Below, one piece after another: positions 14,516 through 63,845 of a DNA stretch of 63,845 bases; the first letter of the stretch is position 1, and every line of letters begins with the position of its first letter. The DNA comes from Mustelus asterias. Lineage: Eukaryota. The notes under the pieces were generated by a model, which did not search any database, was not told where the DNA came from, and saw only the letters and a program-made list of their open reading frames with translations. Position numbers and translations under genes: made by a program. The stretch lies in NCBI RefSeq assembly GCF_964213995.1, contig NC_135808.1:22568001-22631845 (forward strand), read 5' to 3'.

Positions 14516-14907
14516 ATGATTGGACTGATAGAGCTGGTCCTTCTGTGTGGAGAGGTGTCTGCAGGTGAGTGATGGGGTGTGAGAGGGGCAATGCCAGGCT
14601 GGGTACTGGGGCATTAACCCTGGGTCAGTGAGTGATGGGGTGTGAGAGGGGCAAAGCCAGGCTGGGTACTGGGGCATTAACCCTGGGTCAGTGAGTGATG
14701 GGGTGTGAGAGGGGCAATGCCAGGCTGGGTACTGGGGCATTAACCCTGGGTCAGTGAGTGATGGGGTGTGAGAGGGGCAATGCCAGGCTGGGTACTGGGG
14801 CATTAACCCTGGGTCACTGAGTGATGGGGTGTGAGAGGGGCAATGTCAGGCTGGGTGGAGGCCTTGCTCTCGGTTTGGAATCAGTGTTTTGGGGTTCATG
14901 CCCTGAT

Positions 14908-14943
<36 letters not shown>

Positions 14944-17900
14944 GTGTTGGTGTTTTTAGGGTGTCTATCCTGAATTCTCTCTCTCTCTATTCCAGGCTCT
15001 CACTCTCTCCGGTATTTCTTCACGGGAATGACTCCGATCCCGGGTTTCCCGGAGTTTGTGGCTGTCGGTTCTGTGGACGGTGTCCAGTTTGTTTTGTACG
15101 ACAGCGATCGGAGGGAGCTGATCCCCCGGGAGCAGTGGATGGTGGAGAGCGAGGGTCGGGCAGCCTGGGAGCGGAAGAAGGATCTCGCACAGGAGCAGGA
15201 GATGTACTCCAAACTTACTGTTCCACTGCTCATGACCCGCACCAACCAGACAGGAGGTGAGTGCTCACTCTCCCAGCACCCTGGATCCAGGTGGGAATGA
15301 GGAGAAACCCAGAGTGGATCAGGAACCGGGAGCCAGAGGCTGATTGGCTGCGATTGGAGATGTGACAAGAAATGTGATTGGCTGTGAATGTGTGGAGGGA
15401 TTGTTTCCAGGGAGGTCTGGCTCTGATTGGCTGTGTGTGAGGGGGGGGGGGGGGGGCAGAGTACTTGATGTTGATTGGCTGGTAGGATGAGATCGTCCAG
15501 TGAGACTAGTTCTGAGTGGCTGTGCAGGTGGGATCGCCCATTGGGACTGTCTCTGATTGGCTGTTTGTGTTTCTGATCCTTAGGGATCCATGTTTACCAG
15601 CTGATGACTGGCTGTGACCTGAGGGATGATGGGACCACGAGTGGATTCAACCAAAGGGGATGGGACGGAGATGATTTTATCAGCTTCGACAAGGATCACA
15701 TGATGTGGGTGACCCCGGTGCCCTGGGGAGAGATCACCAAAAACAAGTTGGACAGGAGCACAGTCGACATTCAGCGATGGAAACATTACCTGGAGGTGGA
15801 GTGTATCGAGTGGCTGAGGAAATACCTGGAGTACGGACAGAAAGAATTGAGAGTCTGTGAGTGAGGGGGGAGTGAGAGTTGGTGAGTGAGGGGGGGGAGT
15901 GAGAGTCGGTGAGTGAGGGGTGAGTGAAAGTCGGTGAGTGAGGGGGGGAGTGAGAGGCGGTGAGTGAGGGGGGAGTGAGAGTCGGTGAGTGAGGGGGGAG
16001 TGAGAGTCGGTGAGGGAGGGAGGGAGCGAGAGTCGGTGAGTGAGGGGGGAGTGAGAGTCGGTGAGTGAGGGGAGTGAGAGTCGGTGAGTGAGGGGGGAGT
16101 GAGAGTCAGTGAGTGAGGGGGGAGTGAGAGTCGGTGAGTGAGGGGGGAGTGAGAGTCGGTGAGTGAGGGGGGAGTGAGAGTCGGTGAGTGAGGGGGGAGT
16201 GAGAGTCGGTGAGTGAGAGGGGAGTGAGAGTCGGTGAGTGAGGGGGGAGTGAGAGTCGGTGAGTGAGGGGGGAGTGAGAGTCGGTGAGTGAGGGGGGAGT
16301 GAGAGTCGGTGAGTGAGGGGGGAGTGAGAGTCGGGGAGTGAGAGTCGGTGAGTGAGGGGGGAGTGAGAGTCGGTGAGTGAGGGGGGAGTGAGAGTCGGTG
16401 AGTGAGGGGGGGTGAGAGTCGGTGAGTGAGGGGGGAGTGAGAGTCGGTGAGTGAGGGAGGAGTGAGAGTCGGGGAGTGAGAGTCGGTGAGTGAGGGGGGA
16501 GTGAGAGTCGGTGAGTGAGGGGGGAGTGAGAGTCGGTGAGTGAGGGGAGTGAGAGTCGGTGAGTGAGGGGGGAGTGAGAGTCGGTGAGTGAGGGGGGGTG
16601 AGAGTCGGTGAGTGAGGGGGGAGTGAGAGTCGGTGAGTGAGGGGGGAGTGAGAGTCGGTGAGTGAGGGGGGAGTGAGAGTCGGTGAGTGAGGGGGGAGTG
16701 AGAGTCGGTGAGTGAGAGTCGGTGAGTGAGAGTCGGTGAGTGAGGGGGGAGTGAGAGTCGGTGAGTGAGGGGAGTGAGAGTCGGTGAGTGAGGGGGGAGT
16801 GAGAGTCGGTGAGTGGGGGGGGGTGAGAGTCGGTGAGTGAGGGGGGAGTGAGAGTCGGTGAGTGAGGGGGAGTGAGAGTCGGTGAAGGGGGTGATGCCGG
16901 GACTCTTATCTCGAGGTTCCTGTACTGACTCCTCTTTCTTTCTCTCTCAGTTGCCCCCGTCGTGTCCTTTACCCGTCTGGGTGATTCTAACCGGCTGTCC
17001 TGTGCCGTCACCGGGTTTTACCCTCAAGCCATCGAGGTGAATGTGTGGAGAAACGGAGTGATGATTGATGAGACTCTGTCCAGTGGGATCTTACCCAATC
17101 ACGACAGCTCCTACCAGATCCGGAAATGGGTCGAGTTTGATCCAGAGGACCAGGCCGAGTATTCCTGTCGGGTGGAACACAGCGGGATGAAGGAGACACT
17201 GGTGGTGATTTACGGTAAGACTGTTTCTCACTGTTAGAGAGGACCCAGCCTCAGACCAGGATCACAGGAGGGAGGGTCAGTGCTGAGCTGTCAACCCAGG
17301 ATATATAGAGAGGGAAATAAATCTTATTCAATGCGTTATATATCATGGTTCCACAGTGCAACGTGATACAGCGTATCATTGGATATTGGGATCGCACTGG
17401 ACCTGGTGTAACATTGGACACAAGAGTAGGTCTGGGCCTGGTGTATTCTGGGATATTACAGTATGGTGGGGCCCAGTGAACCCTGGGATATTGCAGTAGT
17501 ACAGACCGTGGTATATCCTGAGATACTCTCGTAGGACACATCCCAGTGAACCCTGGGATATTGCAGTGGTACAGACCGTGGTGTATCCTGAGATATTCTC
17601 GTAGGACAAAAACCAGTGTATCCTGGGATGTTGCAGTGTGTCAGGGTCTGGTGTATCCTGGGATATTACAGGAGGTTGGGCACCGTGGAATATCAGAGGA
17701 TGGAGAGAGCCTGGTGTATCCAAGAAACAATGCTTTTCACTGTGTACCAATACATGTGACAATAATAAATCACATCAAATATTACAGTAGGACTGGACCC
17801 AGTGCATCCTGGAAGTTTGCTTCAGTCAGATTAAGATCAGTATTCAGAGAAATAATGGAATTCCTTCTATTGGAGACAATTCATGAAAATCTAGAATCAA

Positions 17901-20457
17901 ATACTATAACAATGAATATTCAGCATGGATTTTGAAATGGAAAATCTTGTTTTACTCCAATTAGTGGATTTTTTGAGGATGTAACAAAGGGAATAGACAA
18001 TGGTAATGTAATAGATATAATATCATATAATTTTTTTAATGTAATAGAAAAGGGGGTTCGTGATGGACTGATTGACAAGGTGAAAGCATGTGGAGTTAGG
18101 GGATGAGTGACAGAATGGATCACTCACTGACTTTGGGACAGAAAACAGAGAGTGTGAGTAAAGGGTGTTTCAGAGTTACAGAAAGTGTTCCACAAGGATC
18201 AGTGCTGGGATCACCGCTGTTCACAAGTTACACTCCATAACTTGGATATTGGAATCAAAAATACCATTTCTTAATTTGCAGATAACATCAAATTGGGAGA
18301 ATTATTTGATTTTGAGGAGAACTGGAATAAATTAATAGGACATGAATAAACTTGAACAAATAGTTGGTAAATAAAGTTCAGCACAGTTAAACGTGAGGTA
18401 TTTTTCAGTTAACGATGAATAGGGAGGGTTGAGGAACAAAGGGATCTTGATGTACAAATACACCAATCAGTAAACATAGAGTTACAGGTTAGACAATAAA
18501 CAAAATACAATCGAAAACCAGGTTTGATTTCTCCAGGGATAGAATTGTAAAGTAGTGACTTTATTGCTAAACCTGTATCAAACCTTGGTTAGACCACATT
18601 TAAAGACCGTGTGCAGTTCCGGTCACCATTTCATAAAAAGGATATAGAGTCAGGGGAGAGAGTGTAGAGAAGATTTACAGAGATGATTCCAGAAATGAGT
18701 GGGTGGACATCTCAGGAAAGGATTGACCGGCTGGGTCTCTGCTCTCGGGAAAACAGAAGGCTGAGGGTTGACCGAATCGAGGATTTAAAATTAGGAAAGT
18801 TTTTTTTATAGGCCAGACACATCGAGAGTGTTCCTCTTGTGGGAAGAGCATATCCAGTGGCCATCAATACAAGAAACCCAATGGGGAATTCATGAGAAAC
18901 CTCTTCACCCAAAGAGTGATGAGAATGTGGAGCTCGCTGCCACAGGGGGTGGCTGAACTGAACAGTATAGTTTAAGGGGAGGATAGACAAGCAAATGAGG
19001 GAAAGGGGAATAGAGTTAAAATGGTTGAATTAGATGAGGAATGATGGGAGAAGGCTCAAGTGGAACATAAATACCAGTATCAACTAGATGGGCCGGAAGG
19101 CCATTTTCTATGTTGTATATCCTGTGTTTCCTGATTCACTCTCACTCTGATTCTCTCTCACATTTCTCTTTCTTTCACTCTGATTCACTCTTTCATTCTG
19201 TCTCTCTGATCTTTCTCTGTCTCTCATTCTCTCTCTTCCTCACTCTTAGTTGCTCATCCTCTCTCTCATTCTCTCCCACTCGCTCACATTCTATTTCTCT
19301 CTGAGTCTCACTGTTCCCTCTCCCTGATTCACTCAGTCTCTCACATTCTGTCTCTCTGATTCTCACTTTTTTCTCTCCCTGACTCACTCAGTCTCTCTGA
19401 TTCTCTCTCTCTAACAGAACCAAAGTCTCGCTCCCAGGTTGCTGTTACTGTCGGGATTGTGGTCGGGGTCCTCGTGCTCATCGCTCTCATCATTGTGGCT
19501 GTCGTCATCTACAACAAGAAAGGTAGGAATTGGAGGGAAAAGAGCGGTGGGTGAACTGTAGTGGATCCAGGCAGTCCGGGAGGCTGGAATTGATTCGTGC
19601 CATGACTAGCTTTTCGAATCATTTCATAACGATGGATGTCAGAGCCACCGGATGACAGCTCACTGGGGGCAGGGATTCTGGGAGAGTATTCCAGGGTGGC
19701 GGTGGCTCAGGCTGTGGATCTCAGATTGGTGTGGGGGCGGGGATGGGGGGCTGGTGGTTGTACAGAGTGGGTGGAAGAGCTGCAGGTTTGGGATAGGGAT
19801 GGTAAGGGGCTCATGATAAAGGATGAGTGTCTGAGAATTGTGGGAAGGGCCTCAAATTGGGTGAGGAGTTCAGGGTATCAGTGAGGGCTCAGCTAAGAGT
19901 GAGGGTCTAGGGACAGGACGGGAGTGATGGTCCAGGGTCAGGGTGGGAGTGAGGGTCTTGTGTCAGGATGGGAGTGAGGGTCTCTGGTTGTGGTGGGAGT
20001 GAGGGTTCAGAATTGTGTTGTTGGGGCTCAGTGCGAGTGAGAGTTCCAGCCTCTGTCTCTGATTTTCTCTCAGTCTCGTCACTCACTGAGCATTCCATGT
20101 TTTACAGGGAGAGGGAAGAGCAACTACAATCCTGCAAATAGTAAGCTGATCATCAAACATTGTCCCTGTGCAACTGTGTACATCATTGTTCATTCTGTTT
20201 CAACGTTAGTTTGTGTGTGTGTGTGTGCGTGCATCGTGCGTTTCTGTGTGGGTGTGTGGGCTTCTGTGTGTCGCCGTTAGTATGGGTGTGTGAGAACCTC
20301 TTTCTCTGTGTCTCTCTGTCTCTCTCATTCTCTCTTTATCATATTCACAGTCTCTGCCTCTGTCTCTCTGATGTTGAACAATGTTTTAACACCTCTTCTT
20401 CCTTTAACAGCTTCTGATGATGGGGATTCCTCATCCAGATCCTCCACAAGTACCTGA
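14516..20457 (+). CDS. MHC class I heavy chain gene 1 (nonclassical-like), 7 exons, 343 aa
   Basis: Exons 14516-14564 (leader MIGLIELVLLCGEVSA), 14996-15256 (a1), 15584-15856 (a2), 16951-17214 (a3), 19418-19522 (TM), 20108-20140, 20411-20457. All introns are GT-AG phase 1, total 1032 nt with no internal stop. An in-frame upstream ATG lies at 14501. Confidence 0.93.
14565..14856 (+). repeat. 63-bp minisatellite (about 4.5 units) starting at the exon 1 donor
   Basis: GTGAGTGATGGGG... recurs at 14565, 14628, 14691 and 14754. Confidence 0.9.
14996..15256 (+). CDS. Gene 1 exon 2, alpha1 domain
   Basis: GSHSLRYFFTGMTPIPGFPEFVAVGSVDG...LMTRTNQTGG, with the NQT glycosylation site. Confidence 0.93.
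15584..15856 (+). CDS. Gene 1 exon 3, alpha2 domain
   Basis: IHVYQLMTGCDL...WDGDDFISFD...YLEVECIEWLRKYLEYG, with the canonical Cys pair. Confidence 0.93.
15857..16890 (+). repeat. 25-bp G-rich minisatellite (GTGAGTGAGGGGGGAGTGAGAGTCG), about 40 units, in gene 1 intron 3
   Basis: Visible period. The unit spans the exon 3 end and the donor. Confidence 0.95.
16951..17214 (+). CDS. Gene 1 exon 4, alpha3 C1-set Ig domain
   Basis: LSCAVTGFYPQAIEVNVW...PNHDSSYQ...YSCRVEHSG. Confidence 0.93.
17380..17830 (+). repeat. Degenerate ~35-bp minisatellite in intron 4
   Basis: Recurrent CCTGGGATATTGCAGT motif. A shorter version is at about 34545-34920. Confidence 0.6.
17850..19110 (+). mobile_element. Old degenerate CR1 LINE relic in intron 4 (paralogous copies at ~34950-36205 and ~61900-62870)
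   Basis: Decayed QHGF, QGSVLG, FADN and LVRPHL motifs. Confidence 0.65.
19418..19522 (+). CDS. Gene 1 exon 5, connecting peptide and transmembrane
   Basis: EPKSRSQVAVTVGIVVGVLVLIALIIVAVVIYNKK. Preceded by a long CT-rich tract. Confidence 0.9.
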
Positions 20458-20888
20458 GGTATGAACTGTGTTGATAAATATTGGGAGCTGATCCTTCTAA
20501 CTGGGATATTCCCGCTGGATTTAGCTGTACAATCTGGTGGGTGGGCTGTGAGCTCAGTGTCTGTCTCTCGCTCTATAGTCACTAAAGAGCAGCTCATCCA
20601 ATCCAACACTGAGCTTTGAGACTGGCCTTCTGGAGACGGCTGTTCCTGTACAGTCTGAGGGTGGAGACATTGTGGGTGTTGAGGTGTCGAGACATCCGGA
20701 AACATCTCACCCTGGACAGCCTCCTCTGAGCTGCTCAATTTCCTGAAGGAATTTGTAACTCCCAGACTTTTCCCTGAAGTTGGTCACTGAGCTGTGCCGC
20801 TCCCACAGGTTTTTATTTTAGTCGTGTTTTGTGATGAGTCTGATCATTAGCTGGATGTTTGGGGCGTGGAGTAGAGTTTAGGAGTTAA

Positions 20889-21820: not shown

Positions 21821-21823
21821 GGT

Positions 21824-32180: not shown

Positions 32181-32243
32181 CAACCTGTTTGTGTCTATTC
32201 TGCCGGAGACTGATGACTCACTGAATCTCTTTATTCTGATTGG
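32181..32243 (+). promoter_or_regulatory. MHC S-X-Y module of gene 2
   Basis: Identical to the gene 1 module: CAACCT, CCGGAGACTGATGACTCA, CTGATTGG. Confidence 0.75.
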
Positions 32244-32380
32244 TTTAAATCCTATTTTGTGTCCAATCAGATTGAGGCTCAGTGTCAACAGGGAAAGACA
32301 GAAGGAGTGAGTTGAGAAGATCACCTTTCTTTGAAAAAGAGTTTCCTCCAAATGTTTCCCCCAACATGAGGGAAGCAGCA

Positions 32381-35300
32381 ATGATTGGACTGATAGAGCT
32401 GGTCCTTCTGTGTGGAGAGGTGTCTGCAGGTGAGTGATGGGGTGTGAGAGGGGCAATGCCAGGCTGGGTAATGGGGCATTAACCCTGGGTCAGTGAGTGA
32501 TGGGATGTGAGAGGGGCAATGCCAGGCTGGGTACTGGGGCGTTAACCCTGGGTCAGTGAGTGATGGGGTGTGAGAGAGGCAATGCCAGGCTGGGTGGAGG
32601 TCTTGCTCTCGGTTTGGAATCAGTGTTTGGGGTTCATGCCCTGATCTCTGTGTGTGTGTGTGTGTGTGTGAGGGTGTTGGTGTTTTTAGGGTGTCTATCC
32701 TGAATTCTCTCTCTCTCTATTTCAGGCTCTCACTCTCTCCGGTATTTCTTCACGGGAATGACTCCGATCCCGGGTTTCCCGGAGTTTGTGGTTGTCGGTT
32801 CTGTGGACGGTGTCCAGTTTGTTGTGTACGACAGCGATCGGAGGGAGCTGATCCCCCGGGAGCAGTGGATGGTGGAGAGCGAGGGTCGGGCAGCCTGGGA
32901 GCGGAAGAAGATCTTCGCACAGGAGCGGGCGATGCGTTTCAAACGTGCATTTCCACTGCTCATGTCCGACACCAACCAGACAGGAGGTGAGTGCTCACTC
33001 TCCCAGCACCAGGGGATCCAGGTGGGAATGAGGAGAAACCCAGAGTGGATCAGGAACCGAGAGCCAGAGGCTGATTGGCTGCGATTGGAGATGTGACAGG
33101 AAATGTGATTGGCTGTGAATGTGTGGGAGGATTGTTTCCAGGGAGGCTGCCTCTGATTGGCTGTGTGTGAGTGGAGGAGGTGGGGGGTGGGGGGGCGAGG
33201 GGCGGGAGCAGTTGACGGTGATTGGCTGTTAGGATGAGATTGCCCAGTGAGACTGGTTCTGATTGGCTGTTTGTGTTTCTGATCCACAGGGATCCATGTC
33301 TGCCAGATAGTGACTGGCTGTGACCTGAGCGATGATGGGACCATGAGTGGATTCAGCCAGTACGGGTGGGATGGACATGATGTTCTCAGCTTCGACAAGG
33401 ATCACATGGTGTGGGTGACCCCGGTCACATGGGGGAAGAGCATCAAAAACTGGTGCAACCGGCAGACTGGCAACATTCAGCAATGGAAACATTACCTGGA
33501 GGTGGAGTGTATCGAGTGGCTGAGAAAATACCTGGAGTATGGACAGAGAGAATTGAGAGTCTGTGAGTGAGGGGGGAGTGAGAGTCGGTGAGTGAGGGGG
33601 GAGTGAGAGTCGGTGAGTGAGGGGGGGAGTGAGAGTCGGTGAGTGAGGGGGGAGTGAGAGTCGGTGAGTGAGGGGGGAGTGAGTGAGAGGGGAGTGAGAG
33701 TCGGTGAGTGAGGGGGGAGTGAGAGTCGGTGAGTGAGGGGGGGAGCGAGTGTGGGGAGAGCGAGTGTGGGGGGGGTGAGTGTGAGCGAGGGTGGGGGGAG
33801 CGAGTGTGGGTGAGGGTGGGGGGAGCGAGTGTGGGCGAGTGTGGGGGGAGCGGGTGTGGGCGAGGGTGGCGGGCGGGTGTGGGCAAGGGTGGGGGGAGCG
33901 GGTGGGGGCGAGGGTGGGGGGGCGAGGGTGGGGGGAGCGAGAGTCGGTGAGTGAGGGGGGATTGAGAGTCGGTGAGTGAGGGGGGAGTGAGAGTCGGTGA
34001 GTGAGGGGGGAGTGAGAGTCGGTGAGTGAGGGGGGAGTGAGAGTTGGTGAAGGGGGTGATGCCGGGACTCTTATCTCGAGGTTCCTGTACTGACTCCTCT
34101 TTCTTTCTCTCTCAGTTGGCCCCGTCGTGTCCTTTACCCGTCTGGGTGATTCTAACCGGCTGTCCTGTGCCGTCACCGGGTTTTACCCTCAACCCATCGA
34201 GGTGAATCTGTGGAGAAACAGAGTGGTGATTGATGAGACTCTGTCCAGTGGGATCTTACCCAATCACGACAGCACCTACCAGATCCGGAAATGGGTAGAG
34301 TTTGATCCAGAGGACCAGGCCGAATATTCCTGTCGGGTGGAACACAGCGGGATGAAGGAGACACTGGTGGTGATTTACGGTAAGACTGTTTCTCACTGTT
34401 AGAGAGGACCCAGCCTCAGACCAGGATCACAGGAGTGAGGGTCAGTGCTGAGCTGTCAACCCAGGATATCGAGAGAGGGAAATAAATATTATTCAATGCG
34501 TTATATATCATGGTTCCACAGTGCAACATGATACAGCGGATCATTGGATATTGGGATCGCACTGGGCCTGGTGTAACATTGGACACGAGTGTCGGTCTGG
34601 GCCTGGGGTATTCTGGGATATTGCAGTATAGTGGGGCCCAGTGAATCCTGGGATGTTGCAGTAGTTCAGAACATGGTATATCCTGAGATACTCTCGTAGG
34701 ACACATCCCAGTGTATCCTGGGATATTGCAGCCTGTCAGGGCCTGGTGAATCCTGGGATATTACAGGAGGTTGGGCACCGTGGAATATCAGAGGATGGAG
34801 AGAGCCTGGTGTTTCCAAGAAACAATGCTTTTCACTGTGTACCAATACATGTGACAATAATAAATCATATCAAATATTACAGTAGGACAGGACCCAGTGC
34901 ATCCTGGAAGTTTACTTCAGTCAGATTAAGATCAGTATTCAGAGAAATAATGGAATTCCTTCTATTGGAGACAATTCATGAAAATCTAGAATCAAATACA
35001 ATAACAATGAATATTCAGCATGGATTTTGAAATGGAAAATCTTGTTTTATTCCACTTAGTGAATTTTTTGAGGATGTAACAGAGGGAATAGACAATGGAA
35101 ATGTAATAGATATAATATCATATAATTTTTTTAATGTAATAGAAAAGGGGGTTCGTGATGGACTGATTGACAAGGTGAAAGCATGTGGAGTTAGGGGATG
35201 AGTGACAGAATGGATCACTCACTGACTTTGGGAGAGAAAGCAGAGAGTGTGAGTAAAGGGTGTTTCAGAGTTACAGAAAGTGTTCCACAAGGATCAGTGC

Positions 35301-37493
35301 TGGGATCACCGCTGTTCACAAGTTACACTCCATAACTTGGATATTGGAATCAAAAATACCATTTCTTAATTTGCAGATAACACCAAATTGGGGGAATTAT
35401 TTGATTTTGAGGAGAAGTGTATTAAATTAATAGGACATGAATAAACTTGAACAAATAGTTGGTGAATAAAGTTCAGCACAGATAAACGTGAAGTATTTTT
35501 CAGTTAATGATGAATAGGGAGGGTTGAGGAACAAAGGGATCTTGATGTACAAATACACCAATCAGTAAACATAGAGTTACAGGTTAGACAATAAACAAAA
35601 TACAATCGAAAACCAGGGTTGATTTCTCGAGGGATAGAATTGTAAAGTAGGGATTTTATTGCTAAACCTGCATCAAACCTTGGTTAGACCACATTTAAAG
35701 ACCGAGTGCAGTTCCGGTCACCATTTCATACAAAGGATATAGAGTCAGGGGAGAGAGTGTCGAGAAGATTTACAGAGATTATTCCAGAAATGAGTGGGTG
35801 GACATCTCAGGAAAGGATTCACCGGCTGGGTCTCTGCTCTCGGGAAAACAGAAGGCTGAGGGTTGATTTAATCGAGGATTTAAAATTAGGGAAGTTTTTT
35901 TTATAGAGCGGACACATCGAGAGTGTTCCTCTTGTGGGAAGAGCATATCCAGTGGCCATCAATACAAGAAACCCAATGGGGAATTCATGAGAAACCTCTT
36001 CACCCAAAGAGTGATGAGAATGTGGAGCTCGCTGCTACAGGGAGTGGCTGAACTGAACAGTATAGTTTAAGGGGAGGATAGACAAGCAAATGAGGGAGAG
36101 GGGAATAGAGTTAAAATGGTCGAATTAGATGAGGAATAATGGGAGGAGCCTCAGGTGGAACATTAACACCAGCATCAATAGATGGGCTGAAAGGCCATTT
36201 TCTATGTTGTATATCCTGTGTTTCCTGATTCACTCTCTCTCTGATTCACTCCCACATTTCTCTTTCTTTCTCTCTGATTCACTCTCTCATTCTGTCTCTC
36301 TGATCTTTCTCTGTCTCTCATTCTCTCTCTTCCTCACTCTTAGTTGCTCATCCTCTCTCTCATTCTCTCCCACTCGCTCACATTCTATTTCACTCTGATT
36401 CTCACTTTTCCCTCTCCCTGATTCACTCAGTCTCTCTGATTCTCTCTCTCTAACAGAACCAAAGTCTCGCTCCCAGGTTGCTGTTACTGTCGGGATTGTG
36501 GTCGGGGTCCTCGTGCTCATCGCTCTCATCATTGTGGCTGTCGTCATCTACAACAAGAAAGGTAGGAATTGGAGGGAAAAGAGCGGTGGGTGAACTGTAG
36601 TGGATCCAGGCAGTCCGGGAGGCTGGAATTGATTCGTGCCATGACTAGCCTTTCGAATCATTTCATAATGATGGATGTCAGAGCCACCGGATGACAGCTC
36701 ACTGGGGGCAGGGATTCTGGGAGAGTATTCCAGGGTGGCGGTGGCTCAGGCTGTGGGTCTCAGGTTGGTGTGGGGGTGGGGAGGGGGTGGGTGGGCGGGT
36801 GGAAGAGTTGCAGGGGTTGGGATAGGGACAGTAAGGGGCTCATGATAAAGGGGGAGTGTCTGAGAATTGTGGGAAGGGCCACAAATTGGATGAGGACTTC
36901 AGCGTATCAGTGAGGGCTCAGGTAACAGTGAGGGTCTAGGGACAGGAACCGGAGTGTGGGTCCAGGGTCAGCGTGTGAGTGAGGGTCCAGGGTCAGGGTG
37001 GGAGTGAGGGTCTCTGGTTGTGGTGGGAGTGAGGGTTCAGAGTTGTGTTGTAGGGGCTCAGTGCGAGTGAGAGTTCCAGCCTCTGTCTCTGATTTTCTCT
37101 CAGTCTCGTCTCTCACTGAGCATTCCATGTTTTACAGGGAGAGGGAAGAGCAACTACAATCCTGCAAATAGTAAGCTGATCATCAAACATTGTCCCTGTG
37201 CAACTGTGTACATGATTGTTCATTCTGTTTCAAATATAGTGTGTGCGTGTGCGTGTGCGTGCATCGTGCGTTTCTGTGTGGGTGTGTGGGCTTCTGTGTG
37301 TCGCCGTTAGTATGGGTGTGTGAGAACCTCTTTCTCTGTGTCTGTCTGTCTATGTCTCTCTCATTCTCTCATTATCATATCCACAGTCTCTGCCTCTGTC
37401 TCTCTGATGTTGAACAATGTTTTAACACCTCTTCTTCCTTTAACAGCTTCTGATGATGGGGATTCCTCATCCAGATCCTCCACAAGTACCTGA
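32381..37493 (+). CDS. MHC class I heavy chain gene 2 (nonclassical-like), 7 exons, 343 aa
   Basis: Exons 32381-32429, 32726-32986, 33290-33562, 34116-34379, 36457-36561, 37138-37170, 37447-37493. GT-AG introns, the same exon lengths as gene 1, open frame ending ...SSRSSTST*. Confidence 0.93.
32726..32986 (+). CDS. Gene 2 exon 2, alpha1 domain
   Basis: GSHSLRYFFTG...AWERKKIFAQERAMRFKRAFPLLMSDTNQTGG. Confidence 0.92.
33290..33562 (+). CDS. Gene 2 exon 3, alpha2 domain
   Basis: IHVCQIVTGCDL...WGKSIKNWCNRQ...YLEVECIEWLRKY. Confidence 0.92.
33563..34055 (+). repeat. 25-bp donor-containing minisatellite in gene 2 intron 3 (short, with a degenerate central block)
   Basis: Same unit as 15857-16890. 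Confidence 0.9.
34116..34379 (+). CDS. Gene 2 exon 4, alpha3 domain
   Basis: LSCAVTGFYPQPIEVNLW...YSCRVEHSG. Confidence 0.92.
36457..36561 (+). CDS. Gene 2 exon 5, transmembrane
   Basis: Identical to the gene 1 TM exon. Confidence 0.9.
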
Positions 37494-45305: not shown

Positions 45306-47803
45306 TAGAACATAGAACATATAGAACATAGAACATAGAACATAGAACATAGAACATAGAACATAGAACATAGAACATAGAAAGCCACAGCACAAACAGG
45401 CCCTTCGGCCCACAGGTTGCGCCGATCACATCCCCACCTCTAGGCCTATCTATAGCCCTCAATCCCATTAAATCCCATGTACTCATCCAGAAGTCTCTTA
45501 AAAGACCCCAACGAGTTTGCCTCCACCAACACCGACGTCAGCCGATTCCACTCACCCACCACCCTCTGAGTGAAAAACTTACCCCTGACATCTCCTCTGT
45601 ACCTACCCCCCAGCACCTTAAACCTGTGTCCTCTCGTAGCAACCATTTCAGCCCTTGGAAATAGCCTCTGAGAGTCTACCCTATCCAGACCTCTCAACAT
45701 CTTGTAAACCTCTATCAGGTCACCTCTCATCCTTCGTCTCTCCAGGGAGAAGAGACCAAGCTCCCTCAACCTATCCTCATAAGGCATGCCCCCCAATCCA
45801 GGCAACATCCTTGTAAATCTCCTCTGCACCCTTTCAATGGCTTCAACATCTTTCCTGTAATGAGGTGACCAGAACTGCGCGCAGTACTCCAAGTGGGGTC
45901 TAACCAGGGTCCTATAAAGCTGCAGGATTATCTCCCGACTCCTAAACTCAATCCCTCGATTAATGAAGGCTAGTACGCCGTACGCCTTCTTGACCGCATC
46001 CTCCACCTGCGAGGCCGATTTAAGAGTCCTATGGACCCGGACCCCAAGGTCCTTCTGATCCTCTACACTGCTAAGAATGGTACCCTTCATATTATATTGC
46101 TGCTTCATCCCATTGGATCTGCCAAAATGGATCACCACACACTTATCCGGGTTGAAGTCCATCTGCCACTTCTCCGCCCAGTCTTGCATTCTATCTATGT
46201 CTCGCTGCAACTTCTGACATCCCTCCAAACTATCCACAACACCACCTACCTTGGTGTCGTCAGCAAACTTACCAACCCATCCCTCCACTTCCTCATCCAG
46301 GTCATTTATGAAAATGACAAACAGCAAGGGTCCCAGAACAGATCCCTGGGGCACTCCACTGGTCACTGACCGCCATGCAGAGAAAGACCCCTCCACAGCC
46401 ACTCTCTGCCTTCTGCAGGCAAGCCAGTTCTGGATCCACAAGGCAACAGCCCCTTGGATCCCATGCCCTCTCACTTTCTCAAGAAGTCTTGCATGGGGGA
46501 CCTTATCGAACGCCTTGCTGAAGTCCATATAGACCACATCCACCGCTCTTCCTTCGTCAATGTGTTTGGTCACATTTTCAAAGAACTCAACCAGGCTCGT
46601 AAGGCACGACCTGCCCTTGACAAAGCCGTGCTGACTACTTTTGATCATACTAAACTTCTCTAGATGATCATAAATCCTGTCTCTCAGGATCCTCTCCATC
46701 AACTTACCAACCACTGAGGTTAGACTCACCGGTCGGTAATTTCCCGGGCTGTCCCTGTTCCCTTTCTTGAATATAGGGACCACATCTGCAATCCTCCAAT
46801 CCTCCGGAACCTCTCCCGTCTCCATCGACGATGCAAAGATCATCGCCAAAGGCTCCGCAATCTCCTCCCTCGCCTCCCACAGTAACCTGGGGTACATCCC
46901 ATCCGGTCCCGGCGACTTACCAACCTTGATGCCATTCAATAGTTCCAACACATCCTCTTTCTTTATGTCCACATGCTCGATCCTTTCTGTCCACCGCAAA
47001 CCAGCAGTACAACCACCCAGATCCCTTTCCACCGTGAATACCGAGGTAAAGTATTCATTAAGCAGCTCCGCCATTTCTAACGGTTCCGCACAAACTTTTC
47101 CCCCTTCACCTTTTAAGGGTCCTATGCCTTCACATCTCATCCTTTTACTCTTGACATATTTGTAGAAAGCCTTGGGGTTCTCCTTAATCTTACCCGCCAA
47201 GGCCTTCTCATGACCCCTTCTCGCTCTCCTAATTTCCTTCTTAAGCTCCTTCCTACATCCCGTATACTCCTCTAAATCCTTAACACCTCCTAGCTCTCTG
47301 AACCTTCTGTACGCCTCTCTTTTCTTATTCACCAGGTTCATCACAACCTTCGTGCACCACGGTTCCCGTACCCTACCAACACCCCCCTGTCTCATCGGAA
47401 CGTTGTCATGCAGAGCTCCAGACAAACATTCCTTGAAAATCCTCCACTTTCCTTCGGTACTTTTCCCCAAGAATGCCTCCTTCCAATTTACCCGTCTAAT
47501 TTCCTCCCTGATGACACTGTATTTCCCTTTACTCCAGAGAAACACTTTCCTAGCCTGCCTGATCCTATCTCTTTCCAATGCTATCGTGAAGGAGATAGAA
47601 TTATGATCGCTATCCCCAAGATGCTCACCCACCGAGAGATCCTCCACCTGTCCAGGTTCATTAGCCAGCACCAGATCAAGTACAGCCTCTCCTCTAGTAG
47701 GCTTATCCACATACTGTGTCAGGAAACTCTCCTGGACACACCTAACAAACTCCTCTCCATCCAAACCCCTAGCCCTAGGGATATTCCAATCTATGTTTGG
47801 GAA
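45306..47803 (-). mobile_element. Young 5'-truncated CR1 LINE with an uninterrupted 772-aa ORF2 remnant (endonuclease C-terminus plus RT)
   Basis: ORF 45446-47764 with SDH, NYRPVSL, YMDFSKAFD, PQGSVLGP and FADD. (TTCTATG)n tail. ATTTCA at 45300-45305 and 47804-47809 is the probable TSD. Confidence 0.95.
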
Positions 47804-52563: not shown

Positions 52564-52718
52564 CAAACTCCTTTCAGCTGATTCTACCCGGCAACTGATG
52601 ATGTCAGCAGCTGTCTTTACCTGATTGGACAGTTCTCAACATTGAGGCACTCTCTCACCCTGTTTGTGTCTACTCCGCCGGAGACTGATGACTCACTGAA
52701 TCTCTTTATTCTGATTGG
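52564..52718 (+). promoter_or_regulatory. Two tandem S-X-Y modules upstream of gene 3
   Basis: Distal: CAAACT, CCCGGCAACTGATGATGTCA, CTGATTGG (52621). Proximal: CACCCT, CCGGAGACTGATGACTCA, CTGATTGG (52711). Confidence 0.65.
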
Positions 52719-53662
52719 TTCAGTCCTATTTTGTGTCCAATCAGATTGAGGCTCAGTGTAAACAGGGAAAGACAGAAGGAGTGAGTTGAGCAAATGGCCT
52801 TTCTTTGAAAAAGAGTTTCCTCCAAATGTTTCCCCCAACATGAGGGAAGCAGCAATGATTGGACTGATAGAGCTGGTCCTTCTGTGTGGAGAGGTGTCTG
52901 CAGGTGAGTGATGGGGTGTGAGAGGGGCAATGCCAGGCTGGGTACTGGGGCATTAACCCTGGGTCAGTGAGTGATGGGGTGTGAGAGGGGCAATGCCAGG
53001 CTGGGTACTGGGACATTAACCCTGGGTCAGTGAGTGATGGGGTTTCAAAGGGGCAATGCCAGGCTGTGTGGAGGCCTTGCTCTCGGTTTGGAATCAGTGT
53101 TTTGGGGTTCATGCCCTGATCTCTGTGTGTGTGTGTGTGTGTGTGTGAGGGTGTTGGTGTTTTTAGGGTGTCTATCCTGAATTCTCTCTCTCTCTATTTC
53201 AGGCTCTCACTCTCTCCGGTATTTCCTCACGGGAATGACTCCGATCCCGGGTTTCCCGGAGTTTGTGGCTGTCGGTTATGTGGACGGTGTCCAGTTTGTT
53301 GTGTACGTCAGCGATCGGAGGGAGCTGATCCCCCGGGAGCAGTGGATGGTGGAGAGCGAGGGGCTCGAGTCCTGGGAACAGAAGAAGAAGCTCACACAGG
53401 AAGGGGAGCGATGTCTCAAAGATAATATTCAGACCCTCATGTATCGAACCAACCAGTCGGGAGGTGAGTCTTCAAACTCCCAGCACTCAGCCTCTTTCTC
53501 AGGATGCAGGGCGTATGGGTCAGAGTGGGAGAAACTGGGAGCGGATCAGGATCTGGGACTGGGGGCTGAGGTTGTGCATGAGCTCTGTCAGGTCTGTTGG
53601 TCAATTGAATCTGATTGTGTGTGTTTGGTGGTTTTCCCTCTAGTTGGATTGGGCCGGATTGG

Positions 53663-53694
<32 letters not shown>

Positions 53695-54071
53695 TGGCTG
53701 GACCTCCAGTGGGAACGGATCTGTTTGGGTGGGTTCATGGTGAGTGCAGCTTTTATTGGGACTGGCCCTGATTGGCAGGTTATCTTTCTAATCCACAGGG
53801 ATCCACATACACCAGCTGATGACTGGCTGTGACCTGAGTGATGATGGGAATACGACTGGATTCAACCAGTATGGGTGGGACGGACTAGATTTCATCAGTT
53901 TTGATAAGGATCTTCTGGTGTGGGTGACCCCCGTCCCTTGGGGAGAGATCATCAAACAAAAGTGGGAGGGCAGCACGGGCATTAACCAGCGATGGAAACG
54001 TTACCTGGAGGTGGAGTGTATCGAGTGGCTGAGGAAATATCTGGAGTACGGACAAAAATTACTGAGAGTCG

Positions 54072-55315
54072 GTGAGTGAGGGCGGGAGTGAGAGTCGGTG
54101 AGTGAGGGGGGAGTGAGAGTCGGTGAGTGAGGGGGGAGTGAGAGTCGGTGAGTGAGAGTCGGTGAGTGAGGGGGAAGTGAGAGTGAGGGAGGAGTGAGAG
54201 CCAGTGAGTGAGGGGGGAGTGAGAGTCGGTGAGTGAGGGGGGAGTGAGAGTCGGTGAGTGAGGGGGGACTGAGAGTCGGTGAGTGAGGGGGGACTGAGAG
54301 TCGGTGAGTGAGGGGGGACTGAGAGTCGGTGAGTGAGGGGGGAGTGAGAGTCGGTGAGTGAGGGGGGAGTGAGAGTCGGTGAGTGAGGGGGGAGTGAGAG
54401 ACGGTGAGTGAGGGGGGAGTGAGAGATGGTGAGTGAGGGGGGAGTGAGAGTCGGTGAGTGAGGAGGGGAGTGAGAGTCGGTGAGTGAGGGGGGGAGTGAG
54501 AGTCGGTGAGTGAGGGGAGTGAGAATCAGTGAGTGGTGGGGAGTGAGAGTCGGTGAGTGAGGGGGGAGTGAGAGTCGGTGAGTGAGGGGGGAGTGAGAGT
54601 CGGTGAGTGAGGGGGGAGTGAGAGTCGGTGAGTGAGGGGGGAGTGAGAGTCGGTGAGTGAGAGTCGGTGAGTGAGGGGGAAGTGAGAGTGAGGGAGGAGT
54701 GAGAGCCAGTGAGTGAGGGGGGAGTGAGAGTCGGTGAGTGAGGGGGGAGTGAGAGTCGGTGAGTGAGGGGGGACTGAGAGTCGGTGAGTGAGGGGGGACT
54801 GAGAGTCGGTGAGTGAGGGGGGACTGAGAGTCGGTGAGTGAGGGGGGAGTGAGAGTCGGTGAGTGAGGGGGGAGTGAGAGTCGGTGAGTGAGGGGGGAGT
54901 GAGAGACGGTGAGTGAGGGGGGAGTGAGAGATGGTGAGTGAGGGGGGAGTGAGAGTCGGTGAGTGAGGAGGGGAGTGAGAGTCGGTGAGTGAGGGGGGGA
55001 GTGAGAGTCGGTGAGTGAGGGGAGTGAGAATCAGTGAGTGGTGGGGAGTGAGAGTCGGTGAGTGAGGGGGGAGTGAGAGTCGGTGAGTGAGGGGGGAGTG
55101 AGAGTCGGTGAGTGAGGAGGGAGTGAGAGTCGGTGAGTGAGGAGGGAGTGAGAGTCGGTGAGTAAGGGGGGAGTGAGAGTCGGTGAGTGAGGGGGGAGTG
55201 AGAGACGGTGAGTGAGGGGGGAGTGAGAGTCGGTGAGTGAGGGGGGAGTGAGAGTCGGTGAGTGAGGGGGGAGTGAGAGTCGGTGAGTGAGGGGGGAGTG
55301 AGAGTCGGTGAAGGG
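54072..55315 (+). repeat. 25-bp donor-containing minisatellite in gene 3 intron 3 (about 50 units, with a ~505-bp internal duplication)
   Basis: Variant blocks at 54171/54676 and 54521/55026. Confidence 0.93.
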
Positions 55316-55726
55316 GGTGATGCCGGGACTCTCTATCTCGAGGTTCCTGTACTGACTCCTCTTTCTTTCTCTCTCAGTTGCCCCCGTCGTGTCCTTTACC
55401 CGTCTGGGTGATTCTAACCGGCTGTCCTGTGCCGTCACTGGGTTTTACCCTCAAGCCATCGAGGTGAATCTGTGGAGAGATGGAGTGATGATTGCTGAGA
55501 CTCTGTTTAGTGGGATTTTACCCAATGAAGACAGCACCTCCAGATCTGAAAATGGATCGAGTTTGATCCAGAGGACCAGGCCGACTATTCCTGTCGGGTG
55601 GAACACAGCGGGATGAAGGAGACACTGGTGGTGATTTACGGTAAGACTGTTTCTCACTGTTAGAGAGGACCCAGCCTCAGACCAGGATCACAGGAGTGAG
55701 GGTCAGTGCTGAGCTGTCAGCTGAGG

Positions 55727-57078: not shown

Positions 57079-57124
57079 AGTATGAGGAAGTACCTGTCTG
57101 AGAGTTGCTTACTTTGTTGCTTAC

Positions 57125-58303: not shown

Positions 58304-58419
58304 CTATGTTAATGAATCTAAATTTGGTGAAGGGACACCAGCCTTGTGGGAGTTATTTCAGAGACGAACATGATGGAACTTGTAAAATTTGGCCTAAGTT
58401 GGGGTCAGCCATTCTTCTG

Positions 58420-61255
58420 CATCATTCCTTTGTTTGGAAAACTAGTCTCGTTCAACCCTGCTGTCGAGAACTGGGCCCAAGGTGTGGATCACATGCATTA
58501 TTTTTTTCGGGCAAATGACATTATGGCAGATGAAAAACAAAGGGTGCTGTGAATGCTGTGGTGCTTGAGCGTTTGCTGTCATTCGGAGTTAAACTTTCCC
58601 TGAGGCCCCAGATACTAAAACCTTTCAAGAATTGCCTGAGGTCGTTGGAGAATGCTACAACCCCAAGCCACCTCTAATTTTGAAACAGTATTGTTTATAC
58701 TAAACAATCTGTTATGGGATTCGTAACTAGGTTAAGACAACTGGCGAAAGCATGTGAATTTATTTTAACTCTTAACAAGATGCTTAGAGACTGTCTGGTG
58801 TGCGGTATTAATAATGTGACTGTTCAAAAATGCCTATTAGCTGAAGCACAAGTGGACTTCAAACAGGTGCTACAGCAGGTTTTACCATTGGAAAATGCTG
58901 CATGTGGAGCATATGAGTTGCAAGCCATCCCGAAGTGGACACCCGCGCCAGTCCGACTGAGTTCAGGGACCACTATTTGAGAGCAGGCAATTACATAGCC
59001 TCCCTCAGGAAGTATCCAGATACACATAACTCCAGGTCTGCACAAAGCAAAGCCAAACTTCGACCAAACAGTCACAAGTCCTACCTGATAGCAACAGCAA
59101 AGGAGTCCTACAGGACTGAGATTTAGTAAAGCAACTTGTAGTCCGGTATCCAGGAGTGTTCACACCCTGGGAAGATCCACCTACATCTGATTTAGTGCAA
59201 TTAAATTGCATATCGATGTCCAAATCAGATCAAATCAAGATTAACGTATGGTTAAGTGGACATCTGGTACTAATGGAAGTTGATATCGATGCGGCAGTAT
59301 CAGTGTTCAGAGAATCAGCGTTCCATAAAATTCACTATGGACTCTAGCGCTTATTGTTACTGAAGACCTCAGCAAGATAGGGAACCTGTATCGGGGAACC
59401 TTTCTGAATTTTGAGTGGAACCCCTGACCCTGTCTCCTATGAAAAGCAGCTGGTTCAGTTACCAATGATTGTAGTGAGGGCATGGGGAAGCCTAATGGTG
59501 TGAAATTGGTTGCAAGAGATCCACCTTGGCTCAACATCTTCAGCCAGAGAATGGCTGCCTTAGTGAAGTCCTGCCGAAGTACGCTAAAGCTTTCCTTGAA
59601 GGTCTTGGGACTATCAAAGGAGCCAAGGCGACCTTACCTGTTGACGAGGAAGTGATTCCACAATTTTGCAAGGCCCGCCCAGCGCCATTTGACTTACGAG
59701 TAAAAGTTGAAGCAGAAATCCAAAGACTGGAACGTGAAGGGATCATCAAACCAGTCCAATTTGTGGAATGGGCAGCACCAGTCTTACCAATTTTGAAGCC
59801 AGGTGGATCATTCCATCTTTGCGGGGATCCGAAACAAACGGGAAACTGTTTCTTGCAGCTGGTTGGAAGGATGACTCTTGTTTGTGAAACTTGACATGAA
59901 TCACGCTTACTTACAATTACAACTAGATGACGATTCCCAGAGATATTCAGCAATTCATACTCAGAAGGGCCCTGAGCGATCCACTTGTCTGCCATTTGGG
60001 GTATAGTCACCCTGTTCAACCTTCCAGCGAACGATGGAGAACATTTTGCAAAGCCTCCCTCAGGTTGCTATATATCTGGATGAAGTCCTCTGAACTGGTA
60101 AAAAAAAAGAAACACTTAAAGAACCTTGAGGAAGTTCTCAGTCAATTTTTCAAGGCAGGTGTACGCCTACGAAGGGAACAAATGTGTAATCCAGGTTCCC
60201 CCAAGAGAAAGCTCCATCTCAATAGCAAAGGTACAAAGAAGAAAGAAGTTCCAGGCAGAAGAATCAACAGAGAAAGCCCAAATATTCCGGAAGACACAAA
60301 AACTTTGTTAATAAGTGGGAATTGTATTCACCTGAACAGCATTCCATTTGAATCATTTTATTCAGGTTGTTAATAGTTTAGTTAACTTGTTCACTGTCAA
60401 TTCGATAAATAAGTTGTTCCTTGTTGATTTTTGAGAGTGTCAGGGAGTTATTTTGATTGAACCAGTAAAAGTTGCTGAAGAGCAGATTGTACCACTTCAC
60501 ACTCACTTTTACAGATTATGGCGAGTTGCTCCTCTTTGAGTGGTGAGGCCTTAGTTCTCAGAGGGGGGATCAACCTCGGCTTCATAACAATAACCTATTT
60601 GGGAAATTAAGCCCATTCGTGCCTCCATCCTGGCTCCATTACACCAACTACTAAAAAAAGATCAGCCTTGAGAGTCGTCTTCCAGTCAATCCTTGGCTTT
60701 CAATAAAGTAAAGCAACAACTTTCCTCTTTTAATGTACTGGCGCATTATGATCCCAGGAAAGAACGACCACTGACCCGTGACACATCCTTGTATGGCTTC
60801 ATGACGGCTTTGGCACATAGGTGGCCAAACAGAGTGGAATTGCTTATGCTCCCAGGACCTTGACTATTGCAAAAAAGCCTATGTCGAAAAAGAAGGGTTG
60901 GCGGTGATATTAGGAGTGAAAAGGTTCCACCAGCGCCATTATGGGTAGAAATTTGTCATTAAGACACAGACCACAAGCCACTCCTCGGACTGTTTAAAGA
61001 GGACAAGGCAGTGTTGCCCATAACATCAGCCCAATCCAGCAGTGGGCTTTATTACTGACCGCCTACAATTACCAATTGGAACACTGTCCAGGAGGCCTTG
61101 AGCTGACTATCATTAGCAGATATCCGATCGGTGGTATCCCCAGTGGAAGAGTCTGTAATGACAATGATTTTTTTTGGAGACTTTCCCAGTGCCACTAAAT
61201 AAGATTTGACCGTGGACTAAAAAAGGCCCAGTCTTTGCTAAATTTAAAACATTCA
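58420..61255 (+). mobile_element. Degenerate Ty3/Gypsy LTR-retrotransposon internal region (gag-pro-RT-RNaseH relic)
   Basis: gag PLFGKL..F.P..ENW...YFFRANDI and LRDCLVCGIN, protease-like MEVDIDAAVSV, RT KARPAPF...EIQRLEREGIIKPV...WAAPV. Many stops. LTR-like sequence at ~56275-57124 is interrupted by a SINE and a CR1. Confidence 0.8.
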
Positions 61256-61449
61256 TTTGTGGGACATGGATGTTGCTGACTGGCCAGCATTTATTGCCCA
61301 CCCCTAGTTGTCCTTGTCCGGAGGGCATTTGAGAGTCAACCACATTGCTGTGGATCTGAAGTGACAAGTAGGCCAGACCAGGTAAGGACGGCAGATTTTT
61401 TTCCCTAAAGGACATTATTCAACCCAGATGATTTTTTTTTTGACAATTG

Positions 61450-61880
61450 ACAGTGATAGTGCCGGGGATTGTCAGAGGATACAACAGGATATCGATAGGT
61501 AGATTGGAGACTTGGGCACAAAAATGGGAGATGGAGTTTAATCTGGATTGATGTGAGGTGATGCATTTTGGAGGTTCAAATGTAGGTGTGAATTATACGT
61601 AAATAGCAGAACTCTTCGGTACATTAACATACAGAGGGATCTGGGTGTGCAGGTCCACAGTTACCTAAAAGTGGCAACACAAGTGGCCAAGGTGATTAAG
61701 AAATCATTTGGCATGCTTGCCTTTATCAGCTGGGGCATTGAGTCCAAGAGTTGGGAAATCATGTTGCAGCCATATAAAACCTTGATTAGGCCGTATTTGG
61801 AGTATTTTGTGCTGTTCTGGTCACCACCCTATCAGAAGGACGTAGAAGCTTTGGAGAGAGTGCAAGGAAGGTTCACCAGG
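61450..61880 (+). mobile_element. CR1 fragment
   Basis: QVHSYLKVATQV...LIRPYLEYFVLFWSP. Confidence 0.75.
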
Positions 61881-63845
61881 AGTGACAGAAGGTGGGAAAT
61901 GGTGTTCTGCAGTAATCAACGCTGGAATCACCACTGTTCACACTTTACACTCACTTATTTGGACATTGGAATCGAAACACAATTTCTCAATTTGCTAAGG
62001 TCACCAAATTGGGACGAATTATTCGATATGCTACAAAATAATAGAACATTAATAAACTTGTAGAATGGGCAAATAATTGGTGAATGGAGTTCAGCACAGA
62101 TAAACATGAGGTAGTTTTCTATTAGGGGTGAATAGAGAGGTCACTTATTACTTAGGAGGTGCCGGGCTGGATGGGGTTGAGGAACAAAGGGATTTCGGTT
62201 TACGTTAAACCAATCCGCAACAGATTAGGCAAAGCCATGAACAAAATAAATGGAAAATCAGTCTTTATTTCTAGAGGGATAGAATTGTAAAGCACGGAAG
62301 TTATTGCTAAACTGTTATCAAATCATGATTAGACCACATTTACAGACTGTGTGCAGTTCCAGTCACCATTTTACAGAAGGGTTTTTACTCACAGGAGAGG
62401 ACATAGAGAAGATTTACAGAGATGATTCAAGGAATGAGTGGGTGGACATCTCAGTGAAGGATTGACTGGCTGGGTCTCTGCTCTCAGGAAAACAGAGGGC
62501 TGAGGGTTGACCTAATCGAAGATTTAAAATTAGGAAAGGTTTTCATAGACTGGACACAGAAAGAGTGTTTCCTCTTGTGGGAAGAATGTAACTCGGGGTC
62601 ATCAATACAAGATGGTCACCAAGAAACACAATAGGGAATTCAAGAGAAACTTATTCACTCAAAGAGTGATGTGAATGTGGAGCTCGCTGCCACAGGGAGT
62701 GCTTGAAGTGAACAGTATAGTTTAAGGGGAATGAATGAGGAGGAAATATGTAGTTAAGATGGTCAGTTTCGATGAGGGAAGATGGGAGGAGGATCAAATG
62801 GAGCATAAACACCAGCATCAACTAGATGGGCCAAATGGCCAGGTTCTGAGTCAGGTATTCTATGTTTTCTGATTGTCTCTCTCGCTCTCTAATTCACTCT
62901 CTCTCCATCATTCTCAGGTTCTCTCTCCTCTCTTCCTCTCACATTCTCTCTCTCTCTCTGATTCTCACTTTTCCCTCTCCCTGATTCACTCAGTCTCTCT
63001 GATTCTCTCTCTCTAACAGAACCAAAGTCTCGCTCCCAGGTTGCTGTTACTGTCGGGATTGTGGTCGGGGTCCTCATGCTCATCGCTCTCATCATTATGG
63101 CTGTCGTCATCTACAACAAGAAAGGTAGGAATTGGAGGGAAAAGAGCAGCTCCTTACTGGGGGGAGGGATTGTGGGAGAGTATTCCAGGGTGGGGGGGCT
63201 CAGGCTGTGGGTCTCAGGTTGGTGTGGGGGTCACAGAGTGGATGGAAGAGCCCAGGGTTGGGATAGGGAGGATAAGGGGCTCATGATAAAAGGGAAGAGT
63301 CTGAGAATTGTGGGAAGGGTCTCAGATTGAATGACGAGTTTAGGGTATCAGTGAGGGTCCCGGGTCAGTGCGGGAGTGAGGGTCTTCAGTCAGTGTGGGA
63401 GTGAGGGTCTTCAGTCAGTGCGAGAGTGAGGGTCCCCGGTCAGAGGGGAGTGAGGGTCCTGGGTCAGAGGGGGGAGTGAGGGTCCTAGGTCAGAGGCGGA
63501 GTGAGGGTCCCGGCGAAAGAGGGGGAAGTGAGGGTCCCAGGTCAGAAGAGGAATGAGGGTCCCGGGTCACAGGGGGAGTGAGGGTCCCGGTTCACTGTGG
63601 GAGTGAGGGTCCTGGTCAGGGTGAGAGTGAGGATTTCAGAATTGTGTTGTCGGGGCTCAGTACGAGCGAGAGTTCCAGCCTCTGTCTCTGATTTTCTCTC
63701 AGTCTCGTCACTCACTGAGCATTCCATGTTTTACAGGGAGAGGGAAGAGTGACTACAATCCTGCAAATAGTAAGCTGATCATCAAATATCGTCTCTGCGT
63801 AACTGTGTGAATCACCATTGATTCTGTGTCATATAGTGTGTGTGT

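Follow-up and report, generated by a model that had tools for sequence, protein, structure and literature searches.

The window analysed here, a stretch of 63,845 nucleotides of the Mustelus asterias genome (C8:22568001-22631845; C8 positions in Mb below refer to the same chromosome sequence), contains three tandem class I heavy-chain genes of the major histocompatibility complex (MHC). They read along the + strand from ATGs at 14501, 32366 and 52840, with a spacing of about 18 and 20 kb. All their introns have GT..AG boundaries. Genes 1 and 2 comprise seven exons each, which splice into open frames of 348 aa, and the spliced product of gene 2 matches the NCBI model P0014 (named class I-like protein, Mustelus asterias) letter for letter. 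Gene 3 is a pseudogene whose alpha3 exon carries a 1-base deletion and an independent TGA; both lesions are also present in three other copies of the surrounding block, and a sequencing error is ruled out since the two lesions are common to four copies. The last exon of gene 3 was looked for and not located. A preliminary description of this DNA had recognised three head-to-tail class I genes, two intact and one broken, with the same leader and near-identical transmembrane (TM) and tail segments, and splicing bears this out: the leaders are 100% identical, the TM exons 98–100% and the first cytoplasmic exons 94–100%. Its gene limits need revision, as the in-frame ATG of gene 1 lies five codons before the proposed start at 14516, and the last exons of genes 1 and 2 had been missed. 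Genes 1-3 very probably belong to UBA, a nonclassical class I lineage of elasmobranchs that branched off long ago from the classical lineage UAA, and form part of a recently amplified tandem cluster. This assignment is based on their clade, their position between C4 and RXR, and a shared groove signature.

Related sequences of many sharks and rays were recovered by three protein searches. A quick tree built from 106 alpha1+alpha2 rows places the window genes within a 59-row clade (Shimodaira–Hasegawa-like approximate likelihood ratio test, SH-aLRT, 97). In a careful tree of 38 chosen rows, the bootstrap of which was not fully settled, they fall within a 17-row clade (support 100/98) that includes AAC60347 (nurse shark), AAC60348 (horn shark) and members from white shark, catshark, carpet sharks, sawshark and sawfish. 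Sawfish P0130, in the same clade as the window genes, shares a 90% cluster with LOC127585956, which the available part of the PMC10751288 supplement lists as MHC-Ib (not as UBA) beside RGL-like and C4B-H. The clade is nested among UAA-type rows, its basal support being weak, and the shark alpha3 domains group with galeomorph UAA alpha3 at 96, so that a derivation from UAA, as described for UBA, is found here as well. The available portion of PMC12562908 presents UBA as a derivative of UAA and as one of the two shark Ib families that have expanded, and cites Bartl 1997.

A search of the genome for alpha1 yielded 82 candidates, of which 70 were matches, every one on C8; after merging, 51 alpha1 loci fall within 3 Mb (C8 21.6–24.7 Mb), and the expansion suspected in the preliminary description reaches far beyond the three genes of the window. 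Thirty-six of the 51 loci are open from alpha1 to alpha3 (four of them with the alpha3 frame taken from a separate analysis), 12 carry a lesion and 3 are without alpha3 in the DNA examined. These locus, open-frame and lesion counts, made in one haploid assembly, are lower bounds. The 46 loci with near-full alpha1+alpha2 sort into 16, 18 or 22 types at 95, 97 or 99% identity. The cluster is flanked on one side by C4-like exons (C8 20.30 and 21.07 Mb) and on the other by the ligand-binding domain of an RXR (26.1 Mb). Matches of TAP-like and proteasome-beta type are found at 41.1–43.3 Mb, about 16–19 Mb from the cluster, followed by a third C4-like exon at 44.69 Mb; with the nearest matches at C8 41.1 Mb, the genes lack the tight linkage to TAP1/2 and PSMB8/9 that characterises classical UAA. 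Their setting is instead that of UBA, for which the available text of PMC10751288 describes a multicopy, UBA-only cluster away from the class Ia region and flanked by c4 and rxrb. The accessible rows of its supplement place catshark C4B-H at 30.2, RGL-like at 30.6, three MHC-Ib loci at 32.1–32.4 and RXRB at 34.8 Mb, and two white shark MHC-Ib loci between c4 and rxrb; they label the genes MHC-Ib, without lineage names (PMC10751288). The location of UEA, UDA and UFA, between brd2/b2m and hsd17b8/rxrb, does not fit the window cluster, which is on the C4 side of RXR. Another class I cluster occupies C8 32–35 Mb.

Groove residues were aligned to nurse shark UAA (6LUP) as the reference row, with HLA numbers assigned by sequence motifs. 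Genes 1-3 retain Y7, Y159, W167 and Y171, have A, A and S at position 59, and all carry K63 and T99. L147 is found in gene 1, D84/I143/W146/C147 in gene 2 and I143 in gene 3, with S27 in genes 1 and 2. All groove residues listed in the preliminary description are therefore present, with two corrections: position 99 is no strict anchor (C in 6LUP; Y in 22/30 sequences outside the clade), and S27 is a local variant (10/49 copies in this genome, with Y27 in one copy of gene 1). With Y59 gone from all three genes and changes at 84, 143, 146 and 147, the full peptide-terminus anchor set of classical UAA is missing. At its F-pocket end, gene 2 also carries two additional cysteines, C95 and C147, a pair that recurs in related paralogues (C147 in 11/48).

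Among the 31 clade members from other species, Y59 occurs in 1, K63 in 28, L66 in 29, T99 in 17, I143 in 24, K146 in 6, W147 in 23, E163 in 28 and W167 in all 31. The 30 rows outside the clade have Y59 in 26 cases, K63 in none, T143 in 28, and K146 and W147 throughout. Within the M. asterias genome, K63 is found in 50/50 copies, Y59 in 0/50, W167 in 48/48 and E or D163 in 47/48, and positions 146 and 147 take five or six states. Because clade members of other species carry the same residues, the loss of Y59, along with K63 and T143I, is lineage-wide and not species-specific. The N-terminal end of the groove thus underwent a single change and has been conserved since, while its C-terminal end differs by paralogue.

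Mean hydropathy over 35 inward groove positions is -0.14 to -0.52 in genes 1-3, and five UAA references, from cDNAs or structures, range from -0.02 to -0.87. A strongly hydrophobic groove defines UEA and UCA, and genes 1-3 do not possess one. A lipid-type groove was rejected for these genes on the grounds of their UAA-like hydropathy, and lipid binding is unlikely because their groove is no more hydrophobic than that of 6LUP. A fourth groove type is present in the same block at C8 22648957, just beyond the window, and also at 21878467, 23055401, 23473859, 24362686 and 24674033. It has lost Y7, R84, Y159 and Y171 and kept K63, and its mean hydropathy is 1.2, compared with about -0.1 to -0.5, which would make it a better lipid-binding candidate than genes 1-3.

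From 11768 on, the window recurs at about 22.99, 23.41 and 24.61 Mb with 98.0–99.9% identity in a mosaic pattern. A 2.5-kb insertion of a long interspersed nuclear element (LINE; 45306–47803) is present only in the window copy among the four block copies; it is a fragment whose minus strand has a stop-free frame of 785 residues. The gene 3 lesions are older than the block duplications. Between genes 1-3, the leader, alpha3, TM and tail exons are 93–100% identical, alpha1 84–93% and alpha2 78–85%. Over 12 representatives, synonymous divergence (dS) is 0.37 in groove codons, 0.22 in the other alpha1/alpha2 codons and 0.06 in alpha3. The corresponding ratios of nonsynonymous to synonymous divergence (dN/dS) are 0.72, 0.39 and 0.42, as obtained by crude pairwise counting with the 90/92-codon alpha2 types left out. 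Positive selection on the groove was not detected among these 12 representatives, the dN-dS interval (-0.25 to 0.02) spanning neutrality.

The alpha3 exons group by species (28 rows from this genome, support 84, few columns), whereas the 23.745-Mb groove type clusters with genes of carpet sharks (support 99–100). This type, at C8 23745474 and 24430166, also occurs in epaulette and zebra sharks and sits here on alpha3 homogenised within M. asterias; it represents a trans-order UBA sublineage. In the sevengill shark, P0127 and P0075 combine a UBA-basal and a UAA-type groove with identical alpha3, a sign of exon exchange between lineages. Gene conversion or exon exchange is invoked on top of birth-and-death because old groove exons sit on a recently homogenised scaffold. 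Segmental duplication most probably enlarges the cluster and mutation removes members. Gene conversion or unequal crossover very likely homogenises the leader, alpha3, TM and tail, and the older, divergent alpha1/alpha2 exons stay; the outcome would be 16–22 groove types on one common scaffold. Each gene has a 25-base minisatellite in intron 3 (15848–16885, 33554–34050, 54063–55311) and a 63-base repeat in intron 1 (14565–14856, 32430–32595, 52904–53066), both with differing copy numbers, and these repeats are possible sites of exon exchange.

All three genes are preceded by a promoter module of X2-like, Y and CCAAT boxes, with a spacing similar to that found ahead of UAA in the class Ia region. 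Strict interferon-stimulated response element (ISRE) and kB patterns are absent within 500 bases upstream of genes 1-3 and of the UAA gene. The predicted structure of gene 2 is a class I chain (predicted local distance difference test, pLDDT, 83.7), which supersedes an earlier model built from 16 sequences (pLDDT 52). Its best match is 6LUP (Z 29.9, root-mean-square deviation 1.5, 266 residues). In the fold search, MR1 chains tie with peptide binders, below 6LUP, and the search does not separate ligand classes. Columns that are near-invariant include the disulfide cysteines (both pairs), the glycosylation asparagine, and Q96, D119, D122, P235, D238 and Q242, the last six presumably being contact positions for beta2-microglobulin (beta2m). 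In four runs from related organisms, contigs span the exons, for the most part without the intron; in the runs labelled X2 and X7, 15254 is joined to 15582 at GT..AG, with intron 2 spliced out, and loose contig ends read leader and alpha3 sequence. Spliced transcripts of the family thus exist in relatives, the RNA status of the runs being guessed, and this says nothing on the expression of genes 1-3. The features of the three genes are listed in Table 1.

Table 1. Promoter modules and exons of the three class I genes (positions in the window).
Feature	Position	Strand	Remarks
Gene 1 promoter module	14348..14401	+	X2-like TGACTCA, Y box ATTGG, CCAAT
Gene 1 exon 1, leader	14501..14564	+	
Gene 1 exon 2, alpha1	14996..15256	+	S27, A59, R62, K63, R84
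Gene 1 exon 3, alpha2	15584..15856	+	T99, T143, K146, L147, Y159, E163, W167, Y171
Gene 1 exon 4, alpha3	16951..17214	+	
Gene 1 exon 5, transmembrane	19418..19522	+	
Gene 1 exon 6, cytoplasmic	20108..20140	+	with tyrosine motif
Gene 1 exon 7, tail end	20411..20457	+	stop codon
Gene 2 promoter module	32214..32267	+	X2-like, Y, CCAAT
Gene 2 exon 1, leader	32366..32429	+	
Gene 2 exon 2, alpha1	32726..32986	+	S27, A59, K63, D84
Gene 2 exon 3, alpha2	33290..33562	+	C95, T99, I143, W146, C147
Gene 2 exon 4, alpha3	34116..34379	+	
Gene 2 exon 5, transmembrane	36457..36561	+	
Gene 2 exon 6, cytoplasmic	37138..37170	+	
Gene 2 exon 7	37447..37493	+	stop codon; spliced product = P0014
Gene 3 promoter module	52689..52741	+	X2-like, Y, CCAAT
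Gene 3 (pseudogene) exon 1, leader	52840..52903	+	
Gene 3 exon 2, alpha1	53203..53463	+	S59, Q62, K63
Gene 3 exon 3, alpha2	53799..54071	+	T99, I143
Gene 3 exon 4, alpha3, broken	55378..55640	+	1-base deletion near 55540, TGA 55547-55549
Gene 3 exon 5, transmembrane	63020..63124	+	
Gene 3 exon 6, cytoplasmic	63737..63769	+	

Upstream of the genes, window positions 1–11768 hold about 350 copies of a 33-base satellite, which ends at a 200-N gap and extends upstream for 10 kb or more; the stretches examined around the other block copies did not show it. Elsewhere on C8, in the class Ia region (41.1–43.4 Mb), TAP-like exons occur in six places and proteasome-beta exons in four, along with three class I genes. 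This content exceeds the single set described for other sharks and may reflect duplication of the region or an effect of the assembly. At C8 41594223, the gene grouping with the UAA cDNAs of Triakis has an alpha1 frameshift, and its NCBI model is flagged as low quality; either the frameshift is a sequencing error, or the classical gene has a null allele here. At C8 27975267, outside both clusters, a solitary class I gene has Y59 but S143 and S167, with no alpha3 in the DNA examined.

The preliminary description took the genes for a lineage-specific, possibly undescribed class Ib family. Of the cluster-associated rows of the 106-row tree, 27 do form a mostly species-specific group (support 82, with one long-branch horn shark row), and the cluster is not described in the literature searched. 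An undescribed family is nevertheless very unlikely and already largely refuted: the clade spans sharks and a ray, including cDNA-derived nurse and horn shark entries, the groove signature is shared, and the synteny fits UBA. Tree, residues and synteny place the genes in a characterised lineage with the same substitutions, at the published UBA position, which is the outcome that the preliminary description had itself named as refuting its claim. A literature search by accession found no paper. The literature searched, including bioRxiv, held no description of a large array or a fixed K63, although the primary lineage papers may list the signature. The large array and the fixed K63 extend a known kind and do not make a new lineage. 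What stands of the earlier claims is a nonclassical class Ib family with tandem birth-and-death and remodelled groove ends. Ordinary UAA alleles, or UAA-like genes near the class Ia region, would account for the retained Y7, Y159, W167 and Y171 and for the UAA-type alpha3 start, tail and promoter module. This identity is almost certainly wrong. Forcing seven cluster genes together with triakid UAA was rejected by the approximately unbiased test (p-AU 8e-5), the genome has its UAA-type gene at C8 41.59 Mb, and alpha3 is only 53–60% identical to UAA; together with the groove signature and the 16–19 Mb that separate the cluster from TAP/PSMB, this refutes it.

A copy number that is mostly an assembly artefact (haplotype or false duplication), in a family decaying without function, has a small chance of being correct. 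The near-identity of the block copies, the N gap after satellite at which the window begins, and the 12/51 broken loci would be explained in this way. The four copies are mutually different and mosaic, more than two haplotypes can supply, the LINE is confined to the window copy, 16–22 groove types remain after collapsing, and the non-groove and alpha3 dN/dS values indicate purifying selection. The assembly may still have caused some over-counting.

For the UBA genes themselves, it is plausible that genes 1-3 bind something other than 8-10-mer peptides. Intact members are probably beta2m-paired surface molecules under the same X-Y promoter module as UAA, and it is possible, as the preferred though tentative proposal, that they bind peptides in a non-canonical register. 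K63 is assigned a role in the A pocket because residues 62, 63, 7, 159 and 171 of HLA-B8 hold or gate the peptide N-terminus (PMC6901306, available part). Without Y59, the invariant K63 would face E163 under W167, so that the A pocket would be plugged or re-charged. At the C-terminal end, the relaxation of T143/K146/W147/R84, which differs between paralogues, could admit longer or overhanging peptides, and presentation would be to innate-like T cells or natural killer (NK)-type receptors. As the main alternative, there is a modest chance that K63 is instead reactive or charge-pairing and that the ligand is a small metabolite or a phosphorylated or N-modified molecule, as with MR1 or H2-M3. K63 is fixed in this genome and nearly so in other species while neighbouring groove positions vary, and the loss of Y59 leaves room beside it, yet Y7, Y159, W167 and Y171 are largely retained, by its hydropathy the groove is polar and peptide-like, and the fold search does not distinguish MR1 from peptide binders. 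A further reading, likewise with a modest chance, is a synthesis in which an ancient UBA family is built on a fixed K63, accompanied by E163 and W167 but not by Y59, which holds a conserved ligand end of non-canonical kind (N-modified peptide or small metabolite). Its 16–22 grooves would vary the rest, in an array far exceeding the loci listed for other sharks, groove exons being actively exchanged onto a single alpha3-TM-tail scaffold.

Several points weigh against the preferred reading of genes 1-3 as recently amplified UBA. The comparison set is without any UBA-labelled reference, and AAC60347 and AAC60348 are taken to be the founding UBA clones of Bartl 1997. The shark UBA alpha3 group does not include the alpha3 of sawfish. 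C4 and RXRB are named from domain matches, motifs and order, not from orthology trees, and at least 12 of the 51 loci are broken. The interval of the groove dN/dS spans 1, so that the diversity may reflect relaxed drift and not selection. All transcript runs come from relatives and are only guessed to be RNA, and the putative K63-E163 contact is placed from residue positions on the fold, not from coordinates.

The available text of PMC10751288 describes shark class Ib lineages as being of unknown function. With one end of the groove fixed (K63/E163/W167) and the F-pocket end variable, the UBA ligand can be probed precisely by mutation. The 51-locus array, in which old grooves sit on a homogenised scaffold, illustrates cleanly how birth-and-death and concerted evolution act together, in the jawed-vertebrate group that is the oldest with an MHC; the family is known, and its proteins are already automatically annotated.

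The genes resemble UBA, as far as described in the available parts of PMC10751288 and PMC12562908, in being multicopy, UAA-derived and located on the MHC chromosome in the c4-rxrb interval, off the class Ia region. They share the groove signature of the nurse and horn shark entries. Their 51 alpha1 loci contrast with the 2 listed for white shark and 3 for catshark in the accessible supplement, where an annotated locus may hide more than one gene, and the D84/W146/C147/C95 combination of gene 2 is an extreme variant. Classical UAA (6LUP; Triakis scyllium cDNAs) is similar in exon layout, fold, Y7/Y159/W167/Y171, tail motif and promoter module, but keeps Y59, E/Q/N63, T143, K146 and W147, lies beside TAP/PSMB, and is 44–57% identical to the window genes in alpha1 and 53–60% in alpha3. 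UEA, UDA and UFA are likewise nonclassical class I genes on the same chromosome, and UEA is also expanded, but they form the separate cluster at C8 about 32–35 Mb (named by synteny only), a tested member of which is about 30% identical to the window genes in alpha1 and alpha2. Tandem class Ib arrays that arose from class Ia and have altered groove ends are also known from Xenopus XNC, human HLA-F and the rodent Q/T/M genes, which are not orthologous and serve as functional analogies only. Within the available portion of PMC12562908, XNC4 is reported to bind long peptides.

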